DNA from: an uncultured Gammaproteobacteria bacterium
Lineage (GTDB): Bacteria; Patescibacteriota; Patescibacteriia; UBA9934
Reading direction: 5' to 3'
NCBI GenBank assembly: GCA_964599455.1
Contig: CAZREA010000001.1
Coordinates: 71,687-135,686, forward strand
DNA length: 64,000 bases
Positions 3,214 through 64,000 of this stretch are shown in pieces. A program made the translations under genes and the position numbers. The notes under the pieces are model-generated. The model was not told where the DNA came from. It saw only the letters and a list, made by a program, of their open reading frames with translations, and did no database searches. Position 1 is the stretch's first letter; each line of letters starts with the position of its first letter.

Positions 3214-3956
3214 AACAGAAATTCCGCAACCACATAGCCGGCATCAAACGGAGATGAAATGCTACGAATTTCTGCACGCGTAGCAAAGCCATCAAGCATG
3301 CCAAAAAGAAGAGAGAGCGAACGATAACTGGCATCATTTTCATTTTCTTTCATCTCTGGTGCGAGTTTTAATAGGCTAGCGGTGCTTTTTTCTTCTAGGG
3401 TGATACGCATCGTTTCTAGATGAGCGACTGATACGTCACCTGTTGCAAGAATAGCGATGCGTTTCGAGCTTTCGCTCAAGACATGCTTCAGAGAAATACC
3501 GATATCGAAATGTTTTTTTGCATCAAATTGTTGTGCAGGAATAATAGGAACAATTTTTATTTTTGTCAGTCGTCGCGATAAGAAAAAAAGTGCTGAAGCT
3601 ACGCCAAAAGGAAGACTCGATTCAGTTGAAAGAGTGAGCGCTACGTCACGATGACGCGCGAATCGCTGCAGAGCATCAATAACCGAAAAGTCAGGATGAT
3701 AGCGAGCGACACTACTTAAATCACCGAATGATGATAGGTCAACGGTGTAGGGGTCGGCAACATCAATGCAGGTGGCGTCAGGATAGGCAAAGCGTGATTC
3801 TGTAATCACCACAATCGTTTCAATTTTTCGAGCATACCACTCATCGGCCAGCTCTTCGAGGGCGGTGACTGCTTCCTGTACCTCTGCTCGTTTGTGTTTG
3901 TTGACACTTTCAAGAAGAAGAGGAGAAGAAGGTGCGAATGCAGCGGTGATAAGCAT
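3210..3956 (-). CDS. hypothetical conserved protein
   Basis: 248-aa ORF in operon-like continuity with priA (4-bp overlap). I recognise no diagnostic motif. Confidence 0.4.
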   Translation of the reverse strand: MLITAAFAPSSPLLLESVNKHKRAEVQEAVTALEELADEWYARKIETIVVITESRFAYPDATCIDVADPYTVDLSSFGDLSSVARYHPDFSVIDALQRFARHRDVALTLSTESSLPFGVASALFFLSRRLTKIKIVPIIPAQQFDAKKHFDIGISLKHVLSESSKRIAILATGDVSVAHLETMRITLEEKSTASLLKLAPEMKENENDASYRSLSLLFGMLDGFATRAEIRSISSPFDAGYVVAEFLL

Positions 3957-49851: not shown

Positions 49852-49926
49852 TCCGAGGTAGCTCAGCGGTAGAGCAGTTGGCTGTTAACCAATTGGTCCT
49901 GGGTTCAAATCCCAGCCTCGGAGCCA
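49852..49926 (+). tRNA. tRNA-Asn (anticodon GTT)
   Basis: A cloverleaf folds by eye. The acceptor stem is TCCGAGG/CCTCGGA, the D-arm GCTCAGCGGTAGAGC, the anticodon stem-loop GTTGG-CTGTTAA-CCAAT and the T-arm CTGGGTTCAAATCCCAG. The discriminator G and CCA are encoded. Confidence 0.9.
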
Positions 49927-50009
49927 GCAAGAGACATCAATATTTATTGGTGTTTTTTGTTTGACCTAAGTGGGACGTTAGAACCCGAGCATGATAATAT
50001 ATACTCAAT

Positions 50010-50663
50010 ATGAGAAAAGAAGATCTACAAAAGCTAGGATCACCAGATAAGGAAAGTCGGATTGGCAACGATGTCACGGATCATGATTTTCAAGTACTTC
50101 TGAAAGAAATTGAGCAGGCGTGCGTCGTGTTTCCCAAGAAAACCCCAAAACCATTCATCCTCATTCCAACAGGATTGACCGCATCAGGTAAATCGACAAT
50201 CGTAAAACAAATTGCAGAACACTATTCATTGGTCATTATTCGGACCGATAGCATACGAAGTTACTTAGAAGGTAGAGGATTTAATTTGGTGAGAACGGTT
50301 GAATTTGCATATGATCTGGTAATGAACAGTTTAAAACGAGGATACGGTGTAGCGATTGATGCAGATGTAGTTCAGGAGAAGGATAGAGATGTTATGAGGA
50401 AAGTTGCGAGAGAATTTGGAATTCCTCTTATTTCTATCAAGGTTGTTACACCAGAAAATGTTATTTTATCTAGATTAGATGAAAAGAATTTAGATAGAGA
50501 CTATCGGGGTCGGGAAGCGATAAAACGGTATTTTGAACGAAAGCCTCTTCATAGTGATCACGATTTAGATCATGACTTTAAATTCAATGGAAACTCAGAC
50601 TTAGCACCACAGTTAATAATGGCCTTTGAGCGAATCAATGAGCGTCTCACTGAAGAGAGTTAG
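50010..50663 (+). CDS. P-loop kinase (AAA_33-like ATP-binding protein)
   Basis: Walker A ILIPTGLTASGKSTIV. About 200 aa, the size of small-molecule or polynucleotide kinases. Confidence 0.55.
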   Translation: MRKEDLQKLGSPDKESRIGNDVTDHDFQVLLKEIEQACVVFPKKTPKPFILIPTGLTASGKSTIVKQIAEHYSLVIIRTDSIRSYLEGRGFNLVRTVEFAYDLVMNSLKRGYGVAIDADVVQEKDRDVMRKVAREFGIPLISIKVVTPENVILSRLDEKNLDRDYRGREAIKRYFERKPLHSDHDLDHDFKFNGNSDLAPQLIMAFERINERLTEES

Positions 50664-51543
50664 ATCTAAGGTTTGCCAGTTCACCGTTCTAAACCCGTCC
50701 ACTATTCGGAGCCACATGGAACTGACGTGTGAAAATGCGTCAGTTTTATGTTTGTCTTCGCCATTTTTCATCGGTTCTAACCTACGGTACTCGGCTTCTA
50801 ACGCTGGATACTCATTTACGATAGGAACAAGCCAAGGATGTGCCTCAATGCGGAGTTTTCCGTGCAAAATCGTCGGGTTCGAACCTAACGCCATCATGAT
50901 CTCTTTCTTGCGTTGCAGGTCGCCTTTGAGAAAGGCGCTGTGCGCATAGGTGGCAAAGTCGAACAGCTCCTCCGTAAGCTCAAGCCATCGGTCAGCACGG
51001 GTTTCTGTTTTATCAATCTCTTTGCGCAACTCTGCTTGTTCAGCTTTCAAACGGTCACGCTCTCGGATGTATTCGGCATCGTCAATCAAATCCCGTGCCC
51101 GCATGCGGGTGAGGTTATCGATCTGCGACTGGTTTTCAGCAATGGCCGCAAGTTGGGACTCGTACACTTTCGTGCGTTTGGTCACTTCGTTGTCATGGTC
51201 TTTACCGAGGTTCTCCAACGCCCATGTTCGGAACTCTGGGAGAATAGTGACTGTATGGGGATCGTTCTGTTCTATTTGGTTCAAGAAGTTCAAAATCGTA
51301 GGTGTGTTTCTGTTCAGTGTTCTTTCCGATGAGTCGGATCTTTCCTTCGGCATCGAAATCCTGCAAGATTGTGAGCTGTTCGCTTCGATCAAGGAAAATC
51401 GGCTCATAATCACCCTCGTCTTTCACCAAGTACGCAAAATACGAAGCCGTATTACTTCCAGCTTTTTGTGCGGCCTCGGTCAGATTTCCCCACACATACT
51501 TTCGTTTCTGTTCTTGTGACCATGGCCAGTCCCTCGCATCCAT
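50613..51543 (-). pseudogene. multiply frameshifted coiled-coil, recombinase-like gene (possible integrase remnant)
   Basis: Two long ORFs in different frames overlap (51202..51543 and 50613..51413). A third short frame starts at an ATG with a good SD (ggaggagg). The sequence has a long charged coiled coil (DAEYIRERDRLKAEQAELRKEIDK). It is positioned like an int gene next to the Xis-like HTH and a tRNA. Confidence 0.3.
50680..50716. repeat. direct repeat copy 1 (about 37 bp)
   Basis: ttcaccgttctaaacccgtccactattcggagccaca matches copy 2 at 55354-55390 with 6 mismatches. The 28-bp core ctRaacccRtccaStattcggagccaca has 3 mismatches. Confidence 0.75.
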
Positions 51544-51624
51544 AGTTGTGTAATAGTCATTTTCCTCCTCCTGAATATGATGTAGTATATAGTAACTAAT
51601 GGTAAGTCAGGAATCAAGACCGCT

Positions 51625-51813
51625 ATGGACATAAAAACGCTCCCCGACATTCTTACACTTGGTCAAGTGTGCGAGATCTTGAACGTGCATGCAAACACGC
51701 TCCGACAATGGGATGCAAAAGGTATTCTTCCCGCCATCAGATTCGGAGCAAGAGGCGATCGAAGGTACAAGAAACAGGACGTGCTCAAGTTACTGGATCA
51801 AAAGGGTGCTTGA
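51625..51813 (+). CDS. excisionase/MerR-like HTH DNA-binding protein
   Basis: 62 aa. LTLGQVCEILNVHANTLRQWDAKGILPAIRFGARGDRRY is the Xis/AlpA/MerR-type HTH_17 pattern. Confidence 0.6.
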   Translation: MDIKTLPDILTLGQVCEILNVHANTLRQWDAKGILPAIRFGARGDRRYKKQDVLKLLDQKGA

Positions 51814-51825
51814 GCTCATCAAAAA

Positions 51826-52659
51826 ATGATTATGAATATCAAGCATTTTTACGAAAAATCACAAGGGGAGATAGTCGAGCTATTTCGTGATTTTATCGTG
51901 ACCGACATGTTCGAGCAGTATCCAAAGCTGAAAGACAAGATCAGCTTGATTATCACGGGATCCGTTCCTTCTGATCACTACGACCAATACAGCGACATCG
52001 ATTGCGAGTTCTTTTATGTAGAGGAGTCGGATCGGGAAACGATGAACGCAATAGTAAAGGAATACAAAAAGAGTATTCATGAGCGGAAGCTACCAATCCA
52101 GTTTCATCCCGCAAAGACGTTTGAGGAGCTTCGAAAAGAGCATCTCAATGGGTGGAAAAATGATGACGCCCTGCGGGAGTACTCGATTGCACTCGTGGTA
52201 CTTGATCCAGAAGATCGCTATAAGAAAATCGCATCGACGATTCAGTGGTATCCCGAAGATGTTTTGAGTGAAAAAATCAACTGGCTTTTTGCCGAGTCCA
52301 TTTTTCATTTTGAAGATAGATTCGTTATCGCCGCCAGACGAGAAAATGCTCTCTACGCACATTCTGTGCGCTCCCACATCATCAAGCTACTCGGTAACGC
52401 ATTACTCATGACGGGCGGGCATTGGCCTGTTTTTGAAAAGCATCTTTCGACCGAGCTGAATACGTACGGTGAAAAGGACTTTTGTCTTGCAGTGAGTGAT
52501 TTGTTGGTGACAACAGATTTGGGGGAGATGCAAGCGAAGCTGAAAAAAGTCATCGCCTTGGTCGAGGATCGTTTATTGCGAGATGGACGGATTGAAAATA
52601 AAGCATCCGAGCAATGGATTTTGTTACGACCGAAATATCAGGTCGAGCATTGTCGTTGA
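51826..52659 (+). CDS. Pol-beta-superfamily nucleotidyltransferase (ANT(4')/Lnu-like)
   Basis: IITGSVPSDHYDQYSDIDCEFF matches the minimal NTase signature GS-x(9-13)-[DE]h[DE]h (compare kanamycin NTase GVYGSLGRQTDGPYSDIEMMCV). A roughly 180-aa helical C-terminal domain follows. Confidence 0.6.
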   Translation: MIMNIKHFYEKSQGEIVELFRDFIVTDMFEQYPKLKDKISLIITGSVPSDHYDQYSDIDCEFFYVEESDRETMNAIVKEYKKSIHERKLPIQFHPAKTFEELRKEHLNGWKNDDALREYSIALVVLDPEDRYKKIASTIQWYPEDVLSEKINWLFAESIFHFEDRFVIAARRENALYAHSVRSHIIKLLGNALLMTGGHWPVFEKHLSTELNTYGEKDFCLAVSDLLVTTDLGEMQAKLKKVIALVEDRLLRDGRIENKASEQWILLRPKYQVEHCR

Positions 52660-52671
52660 GAAAAACCATCT

Positions 52672-53214
52672 ATGCATCCAGCTGAACCACAGAGCGAGTT
52701 ATTGCAGTGTTTCGATGAGCAGGGTCTTCCTACCGAAGTGCACACGAGAAGCGAAGTAAAAATGATGCCACCACGCTGGTGGTACGCCACGAGTAAAGTA
52801 TGGCTCGTGAACGATCACGGTGAACTCATGTGTTCGAAACGTGCGGAGGGTCTTTCTGGAAATCCAAATAAGTGGCAAACGTATTTCGGGGGTCATGTGG
52901 CGGCGGGACTCACGATCAAAGAGTCGGCGCAGAGAGAGCTTGAGGAAGAAGCGGGCGTTGTTCGGCCTCTTGAGGACTTTCATTTTATTGATCGTGGTCG
53001 AGATGACATAAAGAAGGTGCATTACGAGTTTTACGCCGTGCGTTTCAATGGTCAGCCATCGGATCTTCACTTTTCTGATAACGAGGTCACCGAAGCGAAA
53101 TGGATGAGCATGGAGAAATACTGGTCTGATCAAGCGGCAAATTCTGACCGTTGGTGCAACGGCTGTACGCCTGAACGACAACAGTTGATCTGTGATTGGT
53201 TGAAAGCCGTCTGA
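52672..53214 (+). CDS. Nudix hydrolase
   Basis: Nudix box GGHVAAGLTIKESAQRELEEEAGV, which has the same 13-residue spacing as MutT (GGKIEMGETPEQAVVRELQEEVGI). Confidence 0.75.
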   Translation: MHPAEPQSELLQCFDEQGLPTEVHTRSEVKMMPPRWWYATSKVWLVNDHGELMCSKRAEGLSGNPNKWQTYFGGHVAAGLTIKESAQRELEEEAGVVRPLEDFHFIDRGRDDIKKVHYEFYAVRFNGQPSDLHFSDNEVTEAKWMSMEKYWSDQAANSDRWCNGCTPERQQLICDWLKAV

Positions 53215-53705
53215 TGGGCGGGGTATCTATGCCTATTGTTTTCACAATACATCCCGCTTTGGAAACCGCTTCGTTGCCCAGCGTTAGCGAAGTGAGTTCG
53301 GTTGCGCTTATTGCGTTGAACCAGCATGGCGAAATACTAGTCACTCACCATAAAGAGCGAGGTTGGGATATTCTTGGTGGTCACGTCGAAAATGGGGAAA
53401 GTATTATTGAGGCGTTACAGCGTGAGGTACTCGAGGAGGCGGGGGCGACATTCGGAAAAGCGACCTTGATTGCAACAATCGCCTCTGATGCAACCGAGGA
53501 GAAATACCGTGGGAAATCGATGCTCATTTTTGTAACGAACGATTTTCAGCTGACCGAACAGTGGCGACCGTCTGATGATGTTTCGGATCGAGCGATTATC
53601 AGCGCTGACGAGATGCTCAAGGGATATCACGGTGATAAAGGCGGCATGATCGAGTTACTGAATCTGGCCGCAAGACGTTTGGGATTATCTGCAAGACATC
53701 TATGA
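53196..53705 (+). CDS. Nudix hydrolase
   Basis: Canonical Nudix box GGHVENGESIIEALQREVLEEAGA. It overlaps the upstream Nudix gene by 19 nt. Confidence 0.8.
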   Translation: MVESRLMGGVSMPIVFTIHPALETASLPSVSEVSSVALIALNQHGEILVTHHKERGWDILGGHVENGESIIEALQREVLEEAGATFGKATLIATIASDATEEKYRGKSMLIFVTNDFQLTEQWRPSDDVSDRAIISADEMLKGYHGDKGGMIELLNLAARRLGLSARHL

Positions 53706-54484
53706 GCATATTCAACCCAGAACTGCGTGAAAACCGTGAATCAAAATGGGAGGAAAATCGATTCTCTCCCGACCTTCAGAAGAAGCTATTGAAGGCGCTT
53801 GATGATGGTAAGGATCGATTCCCTGATATTGTTCAGTGTCCCAACCAAACATGTGGAAACCCTTTGAAAATAGAGATGCAAAAGGATGCTATCTTGGTAC
53901 ATTGCACTAACTGTGGTTGGGAAAGCGTCGTGAGGAGGATTTCGGCATCGAGCTTACGGAAAGATCGTAAATATAGCATCGTGCCTTATCAGCCAAGTTG
54001 GGCGACTGACTTCGAAACTGTCAAAAAGCAGATCGCTCCAGTATTTGGTGATCGAGCCGTTGAGATAATGCATGTTGGAAGTACGGCGATCGTCGGCATG
54101 AGTGGGAAACCCACCATCGATGTACTTGTAATCGTAAACGCCATTACAGGGGTGGACGATTTGAACGGAGCGATGTCTGAACTGGGCTACATCGCACTTG
54201 GTGAATATGTCGCCCCGAATGGCCGACTATTTGCAAAGGAGGTGAATAACGAGCGCTTGGTCAACGTGCATTGTTTTGAGAAAGATCATCCGCATGCGCA
54301 AGAAATGATCGTGATGCGTGACTTCTTGCAAAGCCATCCCGACGAGGCAAAGGCATACGCCGATTTGAAGATCCGCCTGTACGAACAGTACCCTGACGAT
54401 TATCAGGCATACCGACATGTCAAAGATCCATATTTGGCAGAAATGAAAATACGAGCAATGGAATGGGGGCGTACCCATCGCTAA
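53702..54484 (+). CDS. Zn-ribbon / GrpB-family (nucleotidyltransferase-fold) fusion protein
   Basis: The N-terminus has a CPNQTCGN...CTNCGW zinc ribbon. The C-terminus has HVGSTAIVGMSGKPTIDVLV, the GrpB/UPF0157 motif. It has an ATGA overlap with the upstream gene. Confidence 0.65.
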   Translation: MSIFNPELRENRESKWEENRFSPDLQKKLLKALDDGKDRFPDIVQCPNQTCGNPLKIEMQKDAILVHCTNCGWESVVRRISASSLRKDRKYSIVPYQPSWATDFETVKKQIAPVFGDRAVEIMHVGSTAIVGMSGKPTIDVLVIVNAITGVDDLNGAMSELGYIALGEYVAPNGRLFAKEVNNERLVNVHCFEKDHPHAQEMIVMRDFLQSHPDEAKAYADLKIRLYEQYPDDYQAYRHVKDPYLAEMKIRAMEWGRTHR

Positions 54485-54640
54485 ACGCAATCTGCCACTG
54501 TGAGCTTGGGAATGTGAATGTACCCTTTGTGCTCACGAATAGCGGTTCCGATGTCGTTTGCGATGTGGAGCCAACAGGACTTGAACTAGAAATGGTTCAA
54601 GTTTTGTTTTACATTAGAAAAAAGATGGGTTCTGACCACT

Positions 54641-55318
54641 ATGGAAATCAATCATCAAAAAATATTAAAAGATTTCATCTCGCACCTAGATAAGTATATT
54701 GCGCTCCTTGAAAAAGGATCATCATCCACCATCGATATCCCCGATGACCTAGATGTAAAGCAAATTTACAGAATATTTCTTAGGAGATTTCGATCAAATC
54801 TTTACGCTTTATTATCACTCGAAGATCCTTTAATATTCGCCCTTCTGCAGCGGTATAATCATGAAATGTTATTAGATTTTTATTTTCTATGTTCTGATAA
54901 AGATGAAGAAAAGCGAGCGAAGAATTTCAAAAAGTTTTCATCATTTCCAAAAGAAATTCCAGAAGAAATAAAATCAAAAAAATGGAAAAAGTGGGGTGGT
55001 TACGATACATCTTATAAAGAGATATTCATGCCACCTTGGACTGGTAGTCAAGATTCTTTCGAAAATATTTATAAACATCTGAGCAATCTAGCTCATTCGA
55101 ATATTCTATCTATCACCCTCAACGTTCTTGATAATGACGCTAAAAGAAGCCGTAAAGTTATAACCGAAGCAATTTTTCTCTGTATTTTTGAGATAGCCAC
55201 ATGTCTCGATTACTATGGCTTTAGAATAATACTCGGCCCGAATGATTTAAATGATGATTTATATTCTGCTAATTTAGACTTTCAACACCAAGCAGGCCTC
55301 ATGCTAATCTCAGATTAG
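54641..55318 (+). CDS. hypothetical protein (AT-rich compositional outlier)
   Basis: 225-aa Lys/Asn/Ile-rich ORF in a segment visibly more AT-rich than anything else in the window. No motif recognised. Confidence 0.4.
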   Translation: MEINHQKILKDFISHLDKYIALLEKGSSSTIDIPDDLDVKQIYRIFLRRFRSNLYALLSLEDPLIFALLQRYNHEMLLDFYFLCSDKDEEKRAKNFKKFSSFPKEIPEEIKSKKWKKWGGYDTSYKEIFMPPWTGSQDSFENIYKHLSNLAHSNILSITLNVLDNDAKRSRKVITEAIFLCIFEIATCLDYYGFRIILGPNDLNDDLYSANLDFQHQAGLMLISD

Positions 55319-55353
55319 CTATCGAGGAATAATTCATAATCCATCCTTTCCAA

Positions 55354-55390
55354 TCCACCATTCTGAACCCATCCAGTATTCGGAGCCACA
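55354..55390. repeat. direct repeat copy 2 (about 37 bp)
   Basis: tccaccattctgaacccatccagtattcggagccaca; see copy 1. Confidence 0.75.
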
Positions 55391-55581
55391 GAAATCTCTC
55401 GCATTTCACGAGGGATTTTTGTATTTTCAAGTCCCTCCCCGGGCGGGTACAGAACTTGATTTCCCTTAACCCCCAGAGCGATTTTTTAGGAGGTCGTACG
55501 AGCACCCGGGTCACATGGCAAAATGAGACAAATGAGACACAAAAACGGGGTGTGTCTCAAGTTAAAATTAACCCAGATTTT

Positions 55582-56091
55582 ATGCGCACAAAACGCGAAC
55601 AGATCGAATCTTTCAAGGAACTTTGGAAGAAAGAGTACGACCAAGATTTAACCGACGATCAGGCGTTGGAGTATTCCGAGAATCTCCTGGGACTTTACCG
55701 AACTTTGCTCGACGTTCATGTAAGGATGGAACAGTGGAAGGAGCGGCTTATCAAAGAGCCCGATGGATTCGCGGTGACCAATCAGGGTACTTATTCGTGT
55801 GCCGTTTGTTCGCAGCACATGTTCAACGATGAGGGCTGGTATGACCAATTCGGCATTAAGTGCCCTGTTTGCCAGAAGGCCGTGAAGGAAGGCGTGATCC
55901 CCGGAGAAGTCGCCTGCAAGTCCGATACCTGGTTATCATCGGATGATCTCAAAAAGAAGTTCGGTTGGCACCATACGACTGTCGCCAAGAAAGTGCGGAA
56001 CGGCGAGCTCAAGGCGCGGCAGATCAAGAATGGCGAGCATCATTGGTTCTATGTGTTTTTGAAGGAAGAAAATCCGGACATTAGCCAATAG
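55582..56091 (+). CDS. hypothetical Zn-ribbon protein with C-terminal HTH-like segment
   Basis: The sequence CAVCSQH...CPVCQK forms four Cys. The C-terminal LSSDDLKKKFGWHHTTVAKKVRNGELKARQI is HTH_17-like. The start is uncertain (ATG 55582 chosen; the longest ORF starts at 55456). It converges on, and overlaps, the CD-NTase 3' end. Confidence 0.4.
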   Translation: MRTKREQIESFKELWKKEYDQDLTDDQALEYSENLLGLYRTLLDVHVRMEQWKERLIKEPDGFAVTNQGTYSCAVCSQHMFNDEGWYDQFGIKCPVCQKAVKEGVIPGEVACKSDTWLSSDDLKKKFGWHHTTVAKKVRNGELKARQIKNGEHHWFYVFLKEENPDISQ

Positions 56092-57442
56092 GTACATTGA
56101 CACTGCCTTTTCCAACAAGCATTCCCGTAGAATTCTCAACTAAGTATGCCTCTACATAATGAGCGCCCGAATAAGAAGTCGTCTCCTTTTTGCGATACGA
56201 ACCTTGGTCACGAGTAATCTCTCCACGAAGTTGCCCCTTCGCGCGAGCCTCTTCGCCCGTGTTGCGCACCTTCCAATAAAGAGTATGACGCGATTTATCG
56301 ATATTTCTCGGTGGCTTCACGAAGAATTGAAGAGTGGCATTCTTCAACAGCATGTTACCGATCATTGAGAGTCGCTTTCCAAGAAACTTCATACGCTTGA
56401 TGTCTGCATCGACCACCAAAACAAGTAGAACAGGAGCGGTTCCACTGATGTAGTTCTCGATAAAGTCTTCTTGAACCGAGGGAAAACGAACAGCAACGGC
56501 GAATGGCGAAATAGACAGCAAGGGAGACGCTGCCTTTCCAATGACACACTCGTCGCCAAAGATGTCAATCATTTCGGCTTCAAAGTCCTCATCGCTGGAA
56601 GTCAGAGCATCAAGAATTCTTGATGAGTATCCATCAAATTTCTCTCGGAAATTTTCGTATTCCTCCTGTGTCCAGTGACGGGAGGTGAATTTCTCGCTCA
56701 TCAATGCTGGATTGTATACATCCGGCATGTCCTGGTTAGCCTGAAGATATCCGTTCAATCGTGAGAGGATGGTTTTACAAGTGGTTGCGAGATCCGCATA
56801 CAGGCGCTGGTCATCGGCATGATTAACCTGCAGGCCGAGTAATGTCGTTAATACTATAGACTTTACCTTGAATGTACCCTTGTAATCGCGAAGGTATTTT
56901 ACGAGACGAACTACTTTAGAGAGATTTCCGTTAGTGATTGCATTTTGTGAGGCAAACCACTCTGCATACCCGTCTCCATCCGTAGGTTCAGATTGGTTTG
57001 TATTCTTGTTAAAGATAACCTTCTGGGATCCAACCTGCACACAAGGGACGATATCGATATGAAAATCGCTTTCGTAATCCAGTGTTACGCAACGAGTCTT
57101 ACCTCGTCGGTCTACGATGTCGCGATAACGATCCATGCCGTAGAAAAAATCGTGTAGGTGCTTAAGGTAATCCTTCGGCTCCCACCCAGCGACTTCCTTC
57201 TGTATAAACAGCAGGTCAAGGTCGAAATCGTCATCTTCGGCAACAGGCCGAATGGCCGTGTCATTGCGAAATGACCCTTGCGGAACCAAATCGACGAAAA
57301 GATCCTTATAAGGATCGTTATTCTGAAGAAGGCCGGTGACAACCTCGATTCCTTTGTGAATGCGCTCAACGCGATTTTCATTCAGGGATACGCAGTCACT
57401 CACAAAGGATTCAAGACAGTCATTGATTTCTTTCTGTGCCAT
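56081..57442 (-). CDS. SMODS-domain cGAS/DncV-like nucleotidyltransferase (CD-NTase) with C-terminal extension
   Basis: The sequence VPQGSFRNDTAIRPVAEDDDFDLDLLF matches the CD-NTase GS-x4-TA[IL]-x-[DE]h[DE]h pattern. A third acidic motif, DFHIDIVPCV (hDhVP), lies about 60 aa later. A roughly 150-aa C-terminal region of unknown fold follows. Confidence 0.6.
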   Translation of the reverse strand: MAQKEINDCLESFVSDCVSLNENRVERIHKGIEVVTGLLQNNDPYKDLFVDLVPQGSFRNDTAIRPVAEDDDFDLDLLFIQKEVAGWEPKDYLKHLHDFFYGMDRYRDIVDRRGKTRCVTLDYESDFHIDIVPCVQVGSQKVIFNKNTNQSEPTDGDGYAEWFASQNAITNGNLSKVVRLVKYLRDYKGTFKVKSIVLTTLLGLQVNHADDQRLYADLATTCKTILSRLNGYLQANQDMPDVYNPALMSEKFTSRHWTQEEYENFREKFDGYSSRILDALTSSDEDFEAEMIDIFGDECVIGKAASPLLSISPFAVAVRFPSVQEDFIENYISGTAPVLLVLVVDADIKRMKFLGKRLSMIGNMLLKNATLQFFVKPPRNIDKSRHTLYWKVRNTGEEARAKGQLRGEITRDQGSYRKKETTSYSGAHYVEAYLVENSTGMLVGKGSVNVPIG

Positions 57443-57447
57443 ATAGA

Positions 57448-58590
57448 TTAGTTAAGAGTAATCGTTGGTCGGTATTCACCATCAACAAGATCGTGAATCA
57501 CCACTTTAGGAGCGACATCGCGAAGAAGCTCTCGACCGCAGATGATGGCGATCGGTGCAGGAACCGCGAGAAAGAAGTGCACTTTCTCAACATTTCTATG
57601 ACGTGATTCAAGCAGCGACAAAAATTCCTGGAAAGTGTTCCGGAAGTTTTCCAATGTCTTTGGTGAACGTAGGAGTGTTCTGCTCGGCGGCACATCAATT
57701 GGTTCGATCTGGTAGACGATTCCGCCACCCATCGATTTCTCGACCTTATCAACCTCACCTCCGCTGATTGAAGCAAGGAATGCTATTTTGTTGCCACTCT
57801 GTTTTCCGTGCTGGGAAATTTTAAACTTCACCTCAGCACCATCTTCCGGCCAGATCCATCCCTCACCGTCATCTCTATGCTTTTGATAAAGGCTGATCGG
57901 GACTTTGTCACCAAGGTGATAACCGAAGAAACAAAGAAGTGGAATGCGGGCAAGTGAAAACACAGAAAGACGCTCGATATCCCCGCGCTCGATTTGTGGC
58001 AGGATTTGCTCTTGCAGTACGGTCTTGATCTTAGCAGTACCCGCCTTCCAGTAATCCCTGTCGCCGGTATCCGCGATTTTTCCGAGGTCAATGTCGATTA
58101 TTCGCTGGTCGGTATAGCGTTTTTCATGCTTAAACACCGCCGGGTACACCTCACTGTCTGACATCTTTGTGAGATTTCCCCTGACTTGTCCCAACAAACG
58201 GATTACGTGCGTTTTCGCTGTTGCCGGAATACTTGTCAAAAGTGTCATGCGATCTTCGTGCTTCTGTTTCCACTCCCGAAGAAGATCGACTGGAAAATCG
58301 GGGACATGTTTCTTCTTATCTATAAGCGCATGATGCTTGGTGCACATCAGCATCAAGTTTTCCGGTTCAGACCGCTTTTTCATTGGCAGTGGGTGATCTC
58401 CTCGAGGTCCCTTGCGTGAATCTCCGACAATGTGCGCAATATTTCCAAGTCGTGCTTTTTTATGAGTCAGCGATTCAACCATGACCCCCTCGGGGCAGCC
58501 GTAAAACGAGCAGCGACCAGCGGCTGCAACGTATACTTCAAGAATGGTTGCCTCGGAAATCGCTGGCGCTTTTTCTTCTCTTTTTGCCAT
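57448..58590 (-). CDS. Cap5-like CBASS effector (N-terminal HNH endonuclease + C-terminal SAVED-like domain)
   Basis: The N-terminus has HNH motif elements (CSFYGC..., NIAHIVGDS, ENLMLMCTKHHALID). The roughly 260-aa C-terminal remainder has the size of a SAVED sensor domain. It sits 5 nt upstream of the CD-NTase gene. Confidence 0.6.
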   Translation of the reverse strand: MAKREEKAPAISEATILEVYVAAAGRCSFYGCPEGVMVESLTHKKARLGNIAHIVGDSRKGPRGDHPLPMKKRSEPENLMLMCTKHHALIDKKKHVPDFPVDLLREWKQKHEDRMTLLTSIPATAKTHVIRLLGQVRGNLTKMSDSEVYPAVFKHEKRYTDQRIIDIDLGKIADTGDRDYWKAGTAKIKTVLQEQILPQIERGDIERLSVFSLARIPLLCFFGYHLGDKVPISLYQKHRDDGEGWIWPEDGAEVKFKISQHGKQSGNKIAFLASISGGEVDKVEKSMGGGIVYQIEPIDVPPSRTLLRSPKTLENFRNTFQEFLSLLESRHRNVEKVHFFLAVPAPIAIICGRELLRDVAPKVVIHDLVDGEYRPTITLN

Positions 58591-58591
58591 A

Positions 58592-59266
58592 CTAACTCCA
58601 GTTCACGGTCGGTTTTTTAAGAACGAACTTTACCTCACCTGCCACGAAGAATTTATCGGAGTCTTCCGGATGAAGAAAGATTGGCGGGTTAGGTTCTGTG
58701 GATTCCGAGAGAAGCGCGATCTCCCCCGTCTGGTCGTTCTTGGAGAATCGCTTGATGTTCGCCAGACCTTCGAGCACAGCGACGATGTAGGAACCCGACT
58801 CCGGATTGCGCTTGGTGGAGTCGATGATGACGTAGTCGCCGTCCTCGATGCTGTTCTTGCGATCTCCCGCCTTTGCAGCGTTCATGGAGTTGCCGCTTGC
58901 GCGAAGGGCGAACAGCTTCTTTCCCGGATGGACGAGCTTCGCTGAGACCTGAAGGAAGCCTTCCACCACGTCTTCCGCGTACAGACTTGCGGGACCGCAG
59001 TTTGCGGCACCAAGGATCGGGATGGAGTTCAGAGAAAGATTGTCACCGCGGTCATCAAGTGCAGTCACGACACCGCCCTCTCCCTTTTTAAGATGCCCCG
59101 ACGCGTAAAGCTGGGAAAGGTGATAGCTCACGCCGCTTGGGTTCTTGATACCAACGGCGTCCCCAATCTGCTGGAGGGACATATCGCCCAAGTTCCGGCT
59201 ACGGGCGAGGGCAAGAAGTTTGCGTTTTGTCTCATGCATACGGGTAAATACTAGCTTGCTTTGCAA
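58592..59266 (-). CDS. LexA/CI-like S24-family repressor
   Basis: The N-terminus has a winged HTH (LQQIGDAVGIKNPSGVSYHLSQL). The C-terminal S24 peptidase domain has the Ser nucleophile in ASGNSM and the Lys in LANIKRF. Its stop lies 1 nt before the Cap5-like start. Confidence 0.8.
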   Translation of the reverse strand: MQSKLVFTRMHETKRKLLALARSRNLGDMSLQQIGDAVGIKNPSGVSYHLSQLYASGHLKKGEGGVVTALDDRGDNLSLNSIPILGAANCGPASLYAEDVVEGFLQVSAKLVHPGKKLFALRASGNSMNAAKAGDRKNSIEDGDYVIIDSTKRNPESGSYIVAVLEGLANIKRFSKNDQTGEIALLSESTEPNPPIFLHPEDSDKFFVAGEVKFVLKKPTVNWS

Positions 59267-59296
59267 ATCCTTTCAAGTCCTGTAATATTGCGGTAT

Positions 59297-59830
59297 ATGC
59301 CAGCAAAAATAAGATTCCTTAATCCGGTGTGGCGAGAAATGGCCGAACTAGCTCTTCAAGAGCAGACAGAGCGTGTGAGGGAGCTAGGAGCATCCATGCG
59401 TGACCACGCGGAAATCAGTCGTACCCTTCTTTCCGCATCATCGTTCAATGGAATAAAGGGCTCTGAAGACCGAATAGCTGAGCGTGTGACGAACAGCCTG
59501 ACCGACCTCTTTGTGACTGCAGGTGGTGCCGATCGTGTCGTCTTCGTCGTCTCGGATAATACTTTGCGGCGCTGGCCATCCACCGCAACGGGAATGCTGC
59601 TCAGTGCGCAACGCAGGAAGTTGATCGAGTCCCTATCTCACGAATTTACTTCTCCAAAAACTCTGGCAGCACGTTCGGGTTTTAAGAATGCTGTCGGCGT
59701 GCAACAGGCGGTAGCAAAGATCAAGCGCAAATTTCAAGCGACGTTCGGATTGTCGACACCTTTCATTGAAGGACGGGAGGGCTACGGATACAGACTCGCC
59801 GAAGCATACAGCCTGATCGACACCGCTTAA
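59297..59830 (+). CDS. hypothetical regulator with OmpR-type winged-helix C-terminus
   Basis: It is divergent from the S24 repressor. The C-terminus PFIEGREGYGYRLAE resembles the trans_reg_C wing. The start is moved to MPAKIRF. Confidence 0.4.
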   Translation: MPAKIRFLNPVWREMAELALQEQTERVRELGASMRDHAEISRTLLSASSFNGIKGSEDRIAERVTNSLTDLFVTAGGADRVVFVVSDNTLRRWPSTATGMLLSAQRRKLIESLSHEFTSPKTLAARSGFKNAVGVQQAVAKIKRKFQATFGLSTPFIEGREGYGYRLAEAYSLIDTA

Positions 59831-59856
59831 CCCAACATCCTGCGGACAAGGTTTGG

Positions 59857-59885
59857 AAACAGCCGAAAAGACGGCTGTTTTTTGT
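59857..59885 (+). terminator. rho-independent terminator
   Basis: aaacagccg-aaaaga-cggctgttt followed by TTTTG. Confidence 0.65.
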
Positions 59886-59922
59886 ATTGGAGCGGAGGCT
59901 CGGGTTAATCGACGGTTAAGCG

Positions 59923-61242
59923 GTGAGTGCGGGAAAATTTCTGCATATGAAAACCCAATCAACAGCCAAGCTCACATGGCGAACCGAGAAGCGGCGCGTC
60001 ACGGATCTCGTGCCAAACGACAAGAACCCTCGGGTCATGAGCCCGAAGCAGGTCGAGGATCTCACGAATAGCCTCAAGAAATTCAATCTCGTTGAAATCC
60101 CCGTCATCGACGCGGACGACAAGGTGCTCGCAGGCCATCAACGCCTGGCCGTACTGAAACTCCTTGGACGTGAGGACGAGGAAATCGAAGTGCGTGTACC
60201 GAATCGCAAGCTCACACAATCTGAATACGACCAATACCTTCTCACGAGCAATCGCGTCCACGGTGATTGGGATTGGTCAAAGCTCGCGGAAGGATTCGAT
60301 ATCGATCTGCTGCTCGACGTCGGGTTCGACAGCGAAGACATCGCTAATATCTGGGATGAGACGCTTGAGACGGAAGACGATGAGTTCGATGTGGCGAAGG
60401 AAATCGCCGCAATTAAGAAGCCCGTAACTAAACCGGGAACGCTTTACGCGCTTGGCTCACATCGTCTGCTCTGCGGAGACTCAACCAAGACCGAGGAAGT
60501 GAGGCTGCTCGTTAGCAAACGTGAAGTGGGCTTTATCGCTTGCGATCCCCCGTACAACATCGGGCTCTCTTACGACAAAGGCGTCGGCACTGCTGGGAAG
60601 TACGGAGGACACAAGACCAACGACAGCCTGAGCGACAAGGACTATCGCGCATTCATCAGGAAGACGATGGAGAACGCACTCGGCGTCGCAAGGCACGACG
60701 TCCACGCCTTCTATTGGTGCGACGAGTCCTACATCTATCTCATGCAGGAACTGTTCCGCGAATTCGGACTTACGAATCGGCGCGTCTGCATTTGGCTCAA
60801 GGACAACGCAAATCCCACACCGGGCGTTGCTTTCAACAAAGTCAGTGAACCGTGCGTGTACGCAACGCGCGGGAAGCCGTATCTCGCACCCTCCGTTATG
60901 AACCTGAACGAAGTCCTCAATAAAGAAGTTGGTACAGGCAACCAGCTTATCGAGGACGTGCTTGATCTCCTCAACGTATGGCTTGTGAAACGCCTCGCCT
61001 CATCTTCTTACGAACATCCGACGAGCAAGAATCCGACGCTCCACGAAAAGTCATTGCGACGCTGCACTAAGCCAGGTGATTACGTTCTCGACCTATTCGG
61101 TGGAAGCGGTTCGACGCTCATTGCCTGCGAACAGCTCAAACGTCGCGCACTTCTCTGTGAACAGGAGCCGATTTTTTGTGACGTGATCGTAAAGCGATAC
61201 GAAAAACTTACCGGCAAAAAGGCGGAAATCATTAGCTCGTGA
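59923..61242 (+). CDS. ParB-like nuclease domain fused to DNA N6-adenine/N4-cytosine methyltransferase
   Basis: The N-terminal ParB/Srx fold reads EIPVIDADDKVLAGHQRLAVL. In the methyltransferase domain the DPPY motif (IACDPPYNI) precedes the AdoMet motif DLFGGSGST (beta-class order). Confidence 0.8.
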   Translation: MSAGKFLHMKTQSTAKLTWRTEKRRVTDLVPNDKNPRVMSPKQVEDLTNSLKKFNLVEIPVIDADDKVLAGHQRLAVLKLLGREDEEIEVRVPNRKLTQSEYDQYLLTSNRVHGDWDWSKLAEGFDIDLLLDVGFDSEDIANIWDETLETEDDEFDVAKEIAAIKKPVTKPGTLYALGSHRLLCGDSTKTEEVRLLVSKREVGFIACDPPYNIGLSYDKGVGTAGKYGGHKTNDSLSDKDYRAFIRKTMENALGVARHDVHAFYWCDESYIYLMQELFREFGLTNRRVCIWLKDNANPTPGVAFNKVSEPCVYATRGKPYLAPSVMNLNEVLNKEVGTGNQLIEDVLDLLNVWLVKRLASSSYEHPTSKNPTLHEKSLRRCTKPGDYVLDLFGGSGSTLIACEQLKRRALLCEQEPIFCDVIVKRYEKLTGKKAEIISS

Positions 61243-61245
61243 TTT

Positions 61246-61665
61246 ATGTCGGAAGAAAACCGTATCGAAGTCCGGCAAGCCGAGCAAAAAAAGCTACTGA
61301 TTGATCAGCTTAAGAAGACGCCGATCGTGCAGGTCGCCTGCGAGAAGATCGGCGTCGGTCGCGCCACGTTCTACCGGTGGCTTAAGGACGATCCCGATTT
61401 CGGAAAGCTCGCCAACGAATCCATTACCGAAGGTAACGGCCTCATCAGCGACGTGGCCGAAAGCCAACTTGCGAACCTTATCAAGAGCGGAAACCTCGGA
61501 GCTATCTCGTTTTGGCTCAAACATCGCCACCCCGCCTACCGCAACAAGGTGGAAGTACAAGCTAATGTCCGCCATGAAGACACGCCGCTTACCCCCGAAG
61601 AAATGGAGGTCGTTGCTCAGTCGCTACGGCTCGCACTCACAGGTGATGAGAATCAAGAAAATTAA
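61246..61665 (+). CDS. phage terminase small subunit (HTH type)
   Basis: 139 aa. The N-terminal HTH reads VACEKIGVGRATFYRWLKDDPDF. It is immediately upstream of the terminase large subunit. Confidence 0.55.
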   Translation: MSEENRIEVRQAEQKKLLIDQLKKTPIVQVACEKIGVGRATFYRWLKDDPDFGKLANESITEGNGLISDVAESQLANLIKSGNLGAISFWLKHRHPAYRNKVEVQANVRHEDTPLTPEEMEVVAQSLRLALTGDENQEN

Positions 61666-61674
61666 TCCTTACTT

Positions 61675-63204
61675 ATGCAAAGTCAAACAGCTCAACCTAC
61701 CAAAGAGCTCATCGACAGCCTTCTAACGAATCACAAGACCCGCGTTGCGGTCACTCGGGCAAGCCACCTCATGTTTTGTGCAACCTACTTTGCGCATTAC
61801 ACCCAATTTCCATTTGCGGACTTTCACCGGGAGATGTTCGCGCTTAGCGAGCGCGACGACATCCCGCTCTTTATCGTGGAAGCGTTCCGGGGCTCGGGAA
61901 AATCCACCATCATGACGATGTCGCTGCCCATCTGGAGCGTGCTCGGAAAGGATCAGCGGAAGTTCATCATGCTTTTGGGTCAGACGCAGCGACAGGCTAA
62001 ACAGCACTTCATGAACCTCAAGCGCGAACTTGAGACAAATGAACTGCTCCGCAATGACCTGGGACCATTTGAAACTGTTGAGGATGAGTGGGGTTCAAAT
62101 TCAATCGTGCTGACCCGCTACGGCGCGAGGATTACCTGCGCGTCCATGGAACAGCCGATTCGTGGAATGCGTCACGGACGCCATCGTCCCGATCTGGTGA
62201 TCTGTGACGACGTGGAAGACGTATCCTCGGCAAAGACGAAAGAAGGACGCGATAAAGCCTACCAGTGGTTTACGAGCGAGGTGCTCCCCATTGGGGACGA
62301 ACGGACCAAGATCGTTGTGGTGGGAAATCTGGTTCACGAAGATGGACTGCTCTCGCGTTTGGAAAATGCCATTACCAACAAAGAGCGTAAAGGCGTTTTC
62401 AAGAAGTATCCGTTTCTCGACGGCAAGGATAAGCCGCTCTGGAAGAGTCGTTTCCCAACCAAAGAAGACGTGCAGAAGAAAATTGCGTTCGTCGGCGACC
62501 TGATTACCTGGGCGCGCGAATACATGCTCTACATCATCTCGGACGTCGAGCGTGTTATTCATCGCGAATGGCTCCACTATTATGACGAGCTTCCCGGCGT
62601 GAATGGAGACAATTTCAAGTTCGGTGTTATTGGGGTGGATCTCGCCATCTCCCAACGGAGCCGCGCCGACTATACCGCCATCGTTACGGCGATGGTGTAC
62701 AAGAATGGCGACAGCCGAAAGATATATATCTTGCCAAGCCCAATAAACGCGCGTCTGACATTTCCCCGTGCAGTCGAGAAAATCAAGGATACTCACGACG
62801 CGTCGCCACGCCCGAAGAAGACCAAAATCGCTGTTGAATCCGTTGCGTATCAGGCCGCCATGTGGCAGGAACTTAAGCGCCAAGGATACGAAGCCGAGCC
62901 ATACGAGGTACGAGGAAGCGACAAGCGTTCTCGTCTTGCGCTTCTTTCAGAGCCGATTAAGAACGGCACCATTCTTTTCCCGAAGCACGGAGCAAAGGAT
63001 CTTATTAACCAACTCGTAAACTTTGGCGTAGAGCGCCACGACGACCTTGCGGATGCCTTTGCAATCACTGCTTCTTATGGCATGGAGAAGAAGATTAAGA
63101 CATTTGGCGTCTGGGTCATCGACACCAGGCCAGAGCCTCGTTACAGCCTCGGGGACGTGTTCGGTGGCGGATACTGGAATCAGCCCGGAAACTTCCGACG
63201 ATGA
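61675..63204 (+). CDS. phage terminase large subunit
   Basis: Walker A IVEAFRGSGKSTIM, Walker B LVICDDVED, and a C-terminal RNase H-like nuclease region (VIGVDLAISQRSRADYTAIV...DDLADAFAI). Confidence 0.85.
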   Translation: MQSQTAQPTKELIDSLLTNHKTRVAVTRASHLMFCATYFAHYTQFPFADFHREMFALSERDDIPLFIVEAFRGSGKSTIMTMSLPIWSVLGKDQRKFIMLLGQTQRQAKQHFMNLKRELETNELLRNDLGPFETVEDEWGSNSIVLTRYGARITCASMEQPIRGMRHGRHRPDLVICDDVEDVSSAKTKEGRDKAYQWFTSEVLPIGDERTKIVVVGNLVHEDGLLSRLENAITNKERKGVFKKYPFLDGKDKPLWKSRFPTKEDVQKKIAFVGDLITWAREYMLYIISDVERVIHREWLHYYDELPGVNGDNFKFGVIGVDLAISQRSRADYTAIVTAMVYKNGDSRKIYILPSPINARLTFPRAVEKIKDTHDASPRPKKTKIAVESVAYQAAMWQELKRQGYEAEPYEVRGSDKRSRLALLSEPIKNGTILFPKHGAKDLINQLVNFGVERHDDLADAFAITASYGMEKKIKTFGVWVIDTRPEPRYSLGDVFGGGYWNQPGNFRR

Positions 63205-63206
63205 GT

Positions 63207-63986
63207 CTACTTGTCAGCGGCTGTTACGCCCGTGTAATAGCCGCTCTTGTTTATGATCTGCACCGGTTTTACGGAGTAGGTGGTTGCGTTTTCGTCCATA
63301 TTTGCGAGCTTCGCGAGTGACTTCCAGTCGCGTGTCTCTCCAGTTCCACCGTCGCCAAGAGCATCCTCATTTGTGGCGATGAAGAAGCTCGTGACCTGGC
63401 GTGACTTCATGTCGTAGTCGAGCACCAAATCGTATCCGTTAACTTTGAACGAGTTGTCCCAAGTTGTTGTACCCATGGAGATTTGTAGAGCGGTGGGTTC
63501 AGTTTGCTTGCCGTCGGTGGGCGTACCGAGTTCCTTGCGCGCATCTTCAATTGTCAGCGAGAGGATGTGCGGGGCGTCGACGATGGGCGTTACGGTTTCG
63601 TCAGCAACGGAGGCGTCATTCTGCTCACTCATTCCTTCGATGAAACCAACGATTGCACCGACGCTGATAAGAGCAATGAAAATGATTCCGCAGACCTTGA
63701 GCAAAAGCGTCATCTGGCTCGGCTCCTTCGTCGTTCCACTTGGATCGGGATGCTGGCTATCTAGATCGAGGTAAACGGTATAGTCGTTCTTCGCCATGTA
63801 ATACAAGGCGTACGGAATTACGCCGGTAATCAAAGCAAAGAGACAGGAAAAGGACTTCTTGCGAACAAGCTGCGCACTTGATGAATCTTGTAGCGTGACC
63901 GTGTAACCGTGCTCGACCAACTCTTTGATCTGAGCCTTGAGGTTGTTTGGGTGTTTGTTAACGACCCAAGCGGGGTTGTGAGCCAT
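63207..63986 (-). CDS. hypothetical membrane-anchored protein (prophage-borne)
   Basis: 259 aa with two hydrophobic helices (LFALITGVIPYALYY, LLLKVCGIIFIALISVGAIVGFI) and a Thr/Asp-rich extracellular part. Confidence 0.4.
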   Translation of the reverse strand: MAHNPAWVVNKHPNNLKAQIKELVEHGYTVTLQDSSSAQLVRKKSFSCLFALITGVIPYALYYMAKNDYTVYLDLDSQHPDPSGTTKEPSQMTLLLKVCGIIFIALISVGAIVGFIEGMSEQNDASVADETVTPIVDAPHILSLTIEDARKELGTPTDGKQTEPTALQISMGTTTWDNSFKVNGYDLVLDYDMKSRQVTSFFIATNEDALGDGGTGETRDWKSLAKLANMDENATTYSVKPVQIINKSGYYTGVTAADK

Positions 63987-64000
63987 AGGTGAAGCTTTTG

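Follow-up and report, generated by a model that had tools for sequence, protein, structure and literature searches.

Does a tight run of genes for nucleotide-processing enzymes, lying close to a known antiphage system, constitute a defence system of a new kind, or have the genes simply accumulated at the same place? The question is raised by a five-gene cluster at positions 51625–54484 (+ strand) of a 64,000-nucleotide stretch of contig CAZREA010000001.1, referred to below as the window. The cluster encodes a small helix–turn–helix (HTH) protein, a nucleotidyltransferase (NTase), two Nudix hydrolases (Nudix1 and Nudix2) and a fusion of a zinc ribbon (ZnR) to a GrpB domain. The window comes from a Patescibacteria chromosome (candidate phyla radiation, CPR; Uhrbacteria-like), and homologues of the cluster proteins are found almost exclusively in Patescibacteria. 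An initial annotation, whose five same-strand open reading frames (ORFs) and domain calls were all recovered on the + strand, took the genes for one coherent multi-enzyme module on a phage-derived islet. A coherent multi-enzyme module is not supported. The favoured reading, held with some reserve, sees the five genes as cargo carried by a small, now decayed integrative element, one unit of a tandem cassette array at the 3′ end of a tRNA-Asn gene, and the enzymes as independent of one another. For comparison, the neighbourhoods of homologues of the NTase, Nudix1, Nudix2, GrpB and ZnR were fetched, 27 loci in all (designated L001, L002 and so on), and searched with all proteins of the window.

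The array begins at a tRNA-Asn (GTT) gene (49852–49926, + strand; ARAGORN, Rfam tRNA score of 73.7 bits), whose last seven bases, GGAGCCA (49920–49926), form the core of each unit boundary. Cores consisting of GGAGCCA and a hairpin are found at 49920, 50708, 54567 and 55382, all on the + strand. The motif G[AG]AGCCA occurs 14 times in the window and 0.6% of random positions precede such a hairpin, so that only about 0.08 sites would be expected by chance. The first unit is a single-gene kinase cassette of 788 bp (49927–50714, + strand; hairpin of −20.4 kcal/mol) that ends in a 44-nt right arm and the core at 50708–50714. The operon has its own segment, 50715–54573, whose right boundary is the core at 54567–54573, and it is followed by the orf225 cassette, again with a single gene, of 815 bp (54574–55388, + strand), which ends in a 44-nt right arm and the core at 55382–55388. 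The element as proposed would thus correspond to 50715–54573, with the kinase cassette on its left, the orf225 cassette on its right and a prophage-like region carrying an antiphage operon beyond.

The initial annotation had described direct repeats of 37 bp that bounded a single islet of 4.7 kb. Imperfect repeats are indeed present, 44 nt in length and 84% identical (50673–50716 and 55347–55390, 4,674 bp apart); both copies end in GGAGCCA, and a strong hairpin with a T-run follows directly after each. One forms the right arm of the kinase cassette and the other that of the orf225 cassette. Neither marks the border of a single islet, and between the operon and orf225 lies a further attachment (att)-type core, at 54567. 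A tblastx-based interpretation, in which the repeats were remnants of the C-termini of two paralogous integrases, was replaced after core-plus-hairpin junctions had been seen in L022, L024, L026 and L027.

Evidence that the units move comes from L027. There, the arm to the right of a GrpB gene joins, via a single GGAGCCA, the hairpin found after 55382 in the window; the orf225 unit (54574–55388) is precisely missing with one core kept, which is the signature of a site-specific insertion or excision. An arm and core homologous to the right boundary of the operon are located at position 2966 of the same locus. A search for a second tRNA-Asn 3′ end with up to three mismatches found none, only the last 7–9 bases being held in common, and Rfam finds the true tRNA and no further copy.

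The flank of tRNA-Asn is a hot spot throughout the clade. In L009, an intact tRNA-Asn is followed directly by a GrpB gene, with Nudix1-like and Nudix2-like genes 5–6 kb further on. L010 has a 3′ scar of tRNA-Asn, then a 411-aa gene and, after it, SET, GrpB, His_Phos_1, NUDIX and HAD genes. The co-location of GrpB and Nudix genes is most simply explained by this shared integration site. Tandem units bounded by tRNA 3′ ends, some of them without an integrase, together with occupied and empty sites among relatives, are what is seen in the accretion of cis-mobilizable elements (CIMEs) at tRNA 3′ ends, and the array is CIME-like in these respects. It differs from them in its CPR host, in the individual hairpin of each unit and in two features that make it unusual, namely units as small as 0.8 kb with one gene and a core of only seven bases. 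Integration at tRNA 3′ ends is classically carried out by tyrosine integrases; the sole integrase trace in the array is a fragment of a serine integrase. An integron is not indicated either: a scan of the ORFs between 47 and 64 kb brought up no integron integrase (no attC model was run), and the repeats resemble a tRNA 3′ end and not attC.

Several further observations concern the array itself. Its units range from 0.8 to 3.9 kb, some with a single gene, and each has its own hairpin, variable in sequence and constant in shape. Cores were located in relatives at L022 5798, L024 1297 and 2581, L026 31, L027 1917/2082/2250/2966, L009 6903 and L010 1671; the order of units differs among these relatives, and L027 contains “empty” cores 168 nt apart. 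With no intact integrase in view, this apparent gene-capture hot spot of CPR bacteria may work in trans. In several loci (window 49960–50009; L026 60–131; L010 ~1700–1730), the terminator hairpin that comes after the tRNA or a core is itself followed by a conserved box, ACC[CT]A[AG]GTGGGA...TGATAATAT. This box precedes differing first genes, the kinase in the window and ZnR-GrpB in L026, and could serve as an outward promoter or as an arm site for an integrase.

The initial annotation had itself named a lack of conservation as a block as the finding that would speak against its module. That is what was found. Among the 27 loci, the four-enzyme block is present only in L001 and L002 (SRR16481182/3), which have the same sequence as the window. 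The closest relatives split the block at two places, between NTase and Nudix1 and between Nudix2 and ZnR-GrpB. L024 matches the window at 90% nucleotide identity over 51560–52736, with an NTase that is 92% identical in amino acids; its order is core, hairpin, HTH, NTase, Nudix1 reduced to a stub of 22 codons and a stop, then another core and hairpin, and Fic. This HTH–NTase unit is flanked in L024 by an NTPase_I-T gene (ITPase/XTPase-type house-cleaning, 625–1158) and by the Fic gene (2690–3574), both of them once more nucleotide-handling cargo of such an array. L026 has the ZnR-GrpB fusion at 91% identity; immediately before it come a core, a hairpin and a promoter region, and Nudix2 is missing. 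L027 has GrpB at 84% identity, lacking the ZnR, as a single gene between cores, and in L022 the ZnR stands alone after a core and is followed by the sequence that comes after GrpB in the window.

More distant homologues, at 55–84% identity, stand alone in unrelated chromosomal neighbourhoods of Patescibacteria. Those of the NTase at 57–75% identity (L003–L006) adjoin ComEC, NYN, XseA, or DNA polymerase III and ThrRS; a GrpB homologue of 76% lies between enolase and LexA, and a Nudix1 homologue of 84% is found among PEBP, Rce1 and HAD genes in L011. No relative of any of the four enzymes was found on the viral contigs of IMG/VR, and among 50,697 phage records GrpB was present in two and the NTase in none. 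The claim that the genes belong to no named defence or anti-defence system has held up. PADLOC-DB 2.0 returned generic similarity only, of the HTH protein to mad1, of the Nudix proteins to PDC-S07 (E 1e-5 to 1e-7) and of the kinase to VakA, together with a chance-level hit of the NTase to a 2TM “Effector” (E 0.0094, no matched stretch); GrpB had no match. The picture that this suggests is one of individually mobile genes, acting independently and not as one machine, which would have come together by accretion at a common integration hot spot and not through a common pathway.

Remnants of the element's own mobility functions appear at its left end. The first gene of the cluster (51625–51813, + strand) encodes a 62-aa DNA-binding protein of the HTH_17/MerR type and excisionase family (PF12728, 42.6 bits), which scores above the NCBIfam cutoff for the excisionase domain (TIGR01764, 31.2 bits against 28.8), in agreement with the Xis/MerR-like HTH that had been proposed. 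It is likely to be the element's Xis or a regulator. In L024, its residues 4–48, the part aligned by tblastn, are 98% identical and the linkage to the NTase is kept. Divergent from it lies a 266-aa ORF (50613–51413, − strand) that matches only positions 430–561 of the 651 positions of the integrase family phrog_95 (E 7e-7) and has no Pfam match. This is the 3′ fragment of a serine integrase gene, without the catalytic N-terminal two thirds, and it is mostly missing from L024. The fragment and the divergent excisionase-type HTH gene make up the int/xis end that integrative elements usually have, decayed in this case. The reading frame of the fragment continues through the hairpin, the core and the arm of the neighbouring cassette. 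Its C-terminal peptide, WLRI[VL]DGFR.V.W, is also encoded by the arm at 55347–55390, within 55299–55514 (− strand). In a circular form, attP may fall within the 3′ end of the integrase gene.

The compactness of the cluster is largely as the initial annotation gave it. Gaps of 12 nt separate HTH from NTase and NTase from Nudix1, as read from the sequence, and Nudix2 and GrpB overlap by four nucleotides (ATGA). The exception is the overlap of 19 nt claimed for the two Nudix genes, which requires a TTG start at 53196. An ATG at 53214, which shares one base with the preceding stop (TGATG), is the more likely start and gives an overlap of 1 nt. Gene calls for Nudix2 begin at this ATG in L001 (163 aa) and further downstream in L002 (158 aa). 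A promoter-like site before the HTH gene (51554–51581, + strand) has 9/12 matches in a consensus scan, which by itself is not significant, and the region 51560–51624 is about 90% conserved in L024 by blastn. No terminator-like site was seen inside the operon. At its end, the GGAGCCA core (54567–54573) leads into a terminator hairpin (54567–54612 with the core, + strand; −17.8 kcal/mol), and the hairpin proper, 54574–54612, is the probable terminator of the operon. One transcript would probably span the five genes from the promoter-like site to this hairpin, with translation that is probably coupled at the 12-nt gaps as well as at the overlaps. The genes are functional, because the ratios of nonsynonymous to synonymous substitution rates (dN/dS) against the closest relatives lie between 0.05 and 0.21 (ZnR 0.05, NTase 0.075, GrpB 0.08, HTH 0.21) and the catalytic motifs are intact. 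On the latter point, alignment bore out the initial annotation for the NTase, whose GS...DxD motif is invariant, and for the Nudix proteins, in which REx2EE is kept.

The NTase (51826–52659, + strand; 277 aa) consists of a pol-beta NTase domain and a helical domain resembling DUF4037/KNTase_C. Its match to PF01909 is marginal, at 20.6 bits against a cutoff of 21, and G45, S46, D57 and D59, which make up GS...DxD, are invariant among 16 aligned homologues. DUF4037 was found in several of 19 homologues; it has been grouped with Aminoglycoside_NT_C, the C-terminal HEPN-like domain of aminoglycoside NTases (Anantharaman et al., PMC3710099). An AlphaFold 2 (AF2) model with a pLDDT of 88 is most similar to 3c18 (a structural-genomics NTase), DrrA and ANT(4′)/KNTase, with TM-scores of about 0.6, followed by LinB, ANT(6), AadA and GlnE; against 6p06 and 1kny, Foldseek gave an E of 7e-4 and TM-scores of 0.58–0.63 at 12–16% identity in the structural alignment. 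Searches of the PDB with the sequence and with the family profile returned no matches, the solved ANTs included. No match was obtained to PF07827 (KNTase_C) or to NCBIfam or resistance models, and comparison with the viral structures of BFVD yielded only weak generic NTase matches with TM-scores below 0.4. The family is small and confined to Patescibacteria, with a mean column identity of 65%, and is mostly found as a chromosomal single gene.

The enzyme thus shares with ANT(4′)-Ia/KNTase and LinB an N-terminal pol-beta domain with GS...DxD and a C-terminal, all-helical, HEPN-like substrate domain, and differs from them in its low identity, in the lack of a sequence match to solved ANTs and in its restriction to Patescibacteria. 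It has an ANT(4′)-like fold with no demonstrable membership in the ANT(4′)/LinB family and shows the phyletic pattern of a conserved cellular gene. It also recalls MNT-HEPN toxin–antitoxin systems, in which a minimal NTase is joined to a HEPN-related helical domain; it differs in being one fused polypeptide with no partner gene and no conserved Rx4-6H. HEPN RNase activity of the C-terminal domain was considered and rejected, as this motif is not kept: R172 is invariant and the His six residues on is variable. The domain is predicted to be an inactive HEPN-like domain. An enzyme of this fold would be expected to use a hydroxyl of a small molecule or a protein as acceptor for a nucleotidyl group.

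Nudix1 (52672–53214, + strand; 180 aa) and Nudix2 (53214–53705, + strand; 163 aa with the ATG start, 169 aa with the TTG start) score 56.4 and 56.2 bits with PF00293, for which the gathering cutoff is 21.1, and by this match and the Nudix box (GX5EX7REUXEEXGU) both belong to the Nudix superfamily. Nudix boxes had been reported in both proteins, which is correct for Nudix2, whose box is perfect (GHVENGESIIEALQREVLEEAGA), and needs a correction for Nudix1, in which REx2EE (REL-EEE-G) is kept and the first Glu of the box is replaced by Leu, at a position that is variable across its subfamily. Nudix1 belongs to the IDI/YfcD-like subfamily, and the nearest solved proteins are type-1 isopentenyl diphosphate isomerases. 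A role as IDI was rejected: the match is 48.6 bits against an equivalog cutoff of 127, a Gly occupies the position of Cys67, which is catalytic in IDI together with Glu116, and alignment to E. coli IDI showed that Nudix1, unlike IDI, has the canonical REx2EE. Every NCBIfam match of Nudix1 is far under its cutoff. Nudix2 is MutT/YtkD-like, YtkD/RppH and MutT being the nearest types. Inspection by eye for substrate motifs found no SQPWPFPxS (NADH), no NuCoA motif and no Pro at +15/16 (ADP-ribose). The pair would hydrolyse compounds in which a nucleoside diphosphate (NDP) is linked to a further group, either in sanitation of the nucleotide pool or in removal of NDP-linked groups.

The last gene (53702–54484, + strand) encodes an 85-aa ZnR module (53702–53956) of the form CxxC...CxxC, followed by a GrpB/UPF0157 domain. 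The latter is a clear member of its family (PF04229, 141.3 bits against a cutoff of 25.5), which includes E. faecalis EF0920 (2nrk) and the C-terminal domain of actinobacterial CoaE (6n39). It matches 2nrk in sequence with an E of 3e-21 and in structure with a TM-score of 0.92 and a root-mean-square deviation of 1.5 Å; in the AF2 model (pLDDT 90.6), linker residues 81–85 are disordered. The protein differs from these relatives by its N-terminal ZnR module, and the fusion was seen only in the window and in the 91% relative L026. GrpB would thus be a second enzyme of NTase fold, fused here to a normally free-standing zinc-ribbon protein. No functional study of GrpB or DUF4037 was found in the literature searched for their function. 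The GrpB domain of mycobacterial CoaE has been reported to aid the folding of CoaE.

The ZnR has no real Pfam family, with only a sub-threshold match to IBR. It belongs to a family with 33 representatives at 50% clustering, most of them free-standing and about 80 aa long; in other members it is fused to an HAD/LNS2-like domain. The family is restricted to Patescibacteria and has the motif MSxFNPELRExRES...CPxxxCGNPL...CxxCGW (members P0106–P0109 and P0110/P0094). A protein of 1463 aa returned by the ZnR profile search (P0136) is a WD40/STAND protein and was discarded as spurious. Comparison of the fusion gene with L026 133–915 gave a synonymous divergence (dS) of 1.9 for the ZnR half, an estimate from only about 52 synonymous sites, and of 0.44 for the GrpB half, a roughly four-fold difference. 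This pattern suggests different histories of the two halves, through recombination.

Elsewhere in Patescibacteria, the fusion partners of GrpB are inorganic pyrophosphatase (PF00719), histidine phosphatase (PF00300), P-loop kinases and a DGLHR-motif domain, the kinases being of AAA_18 type or recognizable by a Walker A motif (fusion proteins P0040, P0043, P0063, P0066–P0068, P0073 and P0081). Such fusions would fit a pyrophosphate-releasing nucleotidyl transfer by GrpB on a phosphorylated substrate. In their families, GrpB and both Nudix proteins are ordinary members, and there is no new kind of system here.

Not everything agrees with independent, accreted cargo. Spacings of 12, 12, −1 and −4 nt are tighter than loose accretion would give, which suggests selection for co-expression in this lineage. 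The adjacency of NTase and Nudix1 predates the split from L024, because the stub in that locus derives from a full gene. Partial echoes of the cluster occur elsewhere: two stand-alone ZnR genes (7237–7497 and 8839–9114) flank an NTase homologue in L006; Nudix1 adjoins a Nudix2-like gene in L017 and another Nudix gene in L012; L009 and L010 have GrpB close to Nudix genes; and an AadA-type NTase is 0.8 kb from the 84% Nudix1 orthologue in L011. The GrpB fusions and the ZnR–HAD fusion also hint at a common nucleotide chemistry. In addition, few long contigs of close relatives were available, and the absence of the block is judged on a small sample.

A rival explanation is a working multi-enzyme conflict module, serving phage defence, counter-defence or the neutralization of a toxin or antibiotic. 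In such a scheme, the NTases would make a nucleotide conjugate or attach it, the Nudix enzymes would hydrolyse either this conjugate or an immune nucleotide signal, and the HTH protein would act as the regulator. The setting lends it some appeal. As the initial annotation had pointed out, a cyclic-oligonucleotide-based antiphage signalling system (CBASS) lies 1.6 kb from the GrpB gene, on mobile DNA by a prophage. It consists of a CD-NTase gene (SMODS and, at the C-terminus, an AGS-C sensor domain; 56081–57442, − strand) and a gene for an HNH-SAVED effector of Cap5 type (57448–58590, − strand), the pair spanning 56081–58590. The hot spot is variable and mobile and adjoins both this operon and the prophage repressor. 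Neighbouring cassettes, in this array and in related ones, carry domains of conflict type, namely an AAA_33 kinase, Fic (L024) and CBASS. The genes are apparently coupled in translation, all are under purifying selection, and weak pairings recur of ZnR with NTase, Nudix1 with Nudix2 and GrpB with Nudix enzymes or phosphatases. The locus also resembles defence islands and prophage hot spots in having variable cargo lodged between the integration site and a prophage, with a bona fide CBASS close by.

However, the block is not conserved, the closest relatives keeping HTH–NTase or GrpB alone, and the operon differs from defence islands in that no defence model matches it beyond generic domains. 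Homologues are common as chromosomal single genes, viral relatives are lacking in IMG/VR, and the pairing of GrpB with Nudix genes has its explanation in the shared tRNA-Asn site. Neither is the operon an accessory part of CBASS: Cap-type accessory genes belong to the same operon and strand as the CD-NTase, whereas this cluster is on the opposite strand and is separated from CBASS by two att cores, orf225 and orf211. A correction also concerns the phage origin that had been assumed for the operon: its GC content is host-like at 0.45–0.49, compared with 0.52–0.55 in the prophage part (and 0.33 in orf225). A conflict module is thus considered unlikely.

Alternatively, the enzymes could be auxiliaries of the nucleotide economy, engaged in sanitation, salvage or the repair of cofactors or RNA ends, and mobile for the general fitness benefit that they bring to a host unable to make nucleotides. 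Patescibacteria have no known nucleotide biosynthesis pathways and exchange genes via islands and prophages (PMC12455944). House-cleaning genes are found nearby, NTPase_I-T in L024 and MazG-like, CYTH, UDG, HAD, His_Phos_1 and further Nudix genes in L009, L010 and L011. The kinase of the adjacent cassette resembles polynucleotide and nucleotide kinases, and Nudix2 is closest to YtkD/RppH and MutT types, which would suit such a role. Against this, all family matches are far under equivalog cutoffs, so no substrate can be assigned, and salvage would be an atypical role for an enzyme that combines the ANT(4′) fold with a HEPN-like substrate domain. The proposal also overlaps with that of independent mobile cargo, to which it mainly adds a guess at the benefit, and as a separate explanation it is improbable.

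More doubtful still is a lineage-specific assembly of a cooperating Patescibacteria “guild” of DUF4037-type NTases, GrpB, ZnR, Nudix enzymes and HAD/histidine phosphatases. If it were true, a nucleotidyl mark would be made and removed on a small molecule, a protein or an RNA end in the course of phage conflict, and the loose pairings and fusions seen elsewhere would be traces of a nucleotide-conjugate pathway. Finally, it is very unlikely that the NTase is an aminoglycoside or lincosamide resistance enzyme and the locus a small resistance island: its best characterized structural matches, ANT(4′)-Ia, ANT(4′)-IIb, LinB, ANT(6) and AadA, and the grouping of DUF4037 with Aminoglycoside_NT_C speak for it, but structural identity is only 12–16%, neither sequence nor family profile finds the ANTs in the PDB, no NCBIfam resistance model matches, and a conserved, small, mostly chromosomal family found only in Patescibacteria suits a conserved cellular substrate better than it does a resistance gene of patchy occurrence.

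The surroundings of the array are mixed. The left flank, upstream of 49.8 kb, carries housekeeping genes, such as those for a tRNA synthetase, AhpC and leucyl aminopeptidase. The P-loop kinase that had been placed just upstream of the proposed islet was confirmed as an AAA_33 protein (50010–50663, + strand; Pfam AAA_33, 1.7e-14). To the right of the operon, orf225 (54641–55318, + strand) has a weak match to DUF5677. The product of orf211 (55456–56091, + strand) is zinc-finger- and HTH-like, with two CxxC pairs and a C-terminal HTH-like stretch, and has no family match in Pfam, PHROG or the PDB; a homologue of 55% identity adjoins att cores in L027 in reversed orientation. The two-gene CBASS of this CPR bacterium stands back-to-back with an S24/LexA-like repressor gene (58592–59266, − strand), at the edge of the higher-GC prophage-like region (58592–64000), which extends past the end of the window and includes genes for an N6/N4 DNA methylase (59923–61242, + strand) and a terminase large subunit (61675–63204, + strand).

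As a candidate for a new defence or signalling system, the locus fails. It is instead a clean example of how a tight and seemingly coupled operon can arise from accreted, separately mobile genes, and a caution for screens of metagenomes that rely on guilt by association. It documents a tRNA-Asn hot spot of CPR bacteria at which 0.8-kb units with one gene come and go at a core of seven bases. It also draws attention to three protein families of Patescibacteria, the DUF4037-type NTases, GrpB and the zinc ribbon of about 80 aa, whose fusions hint at a shared nucleotide chemistry.

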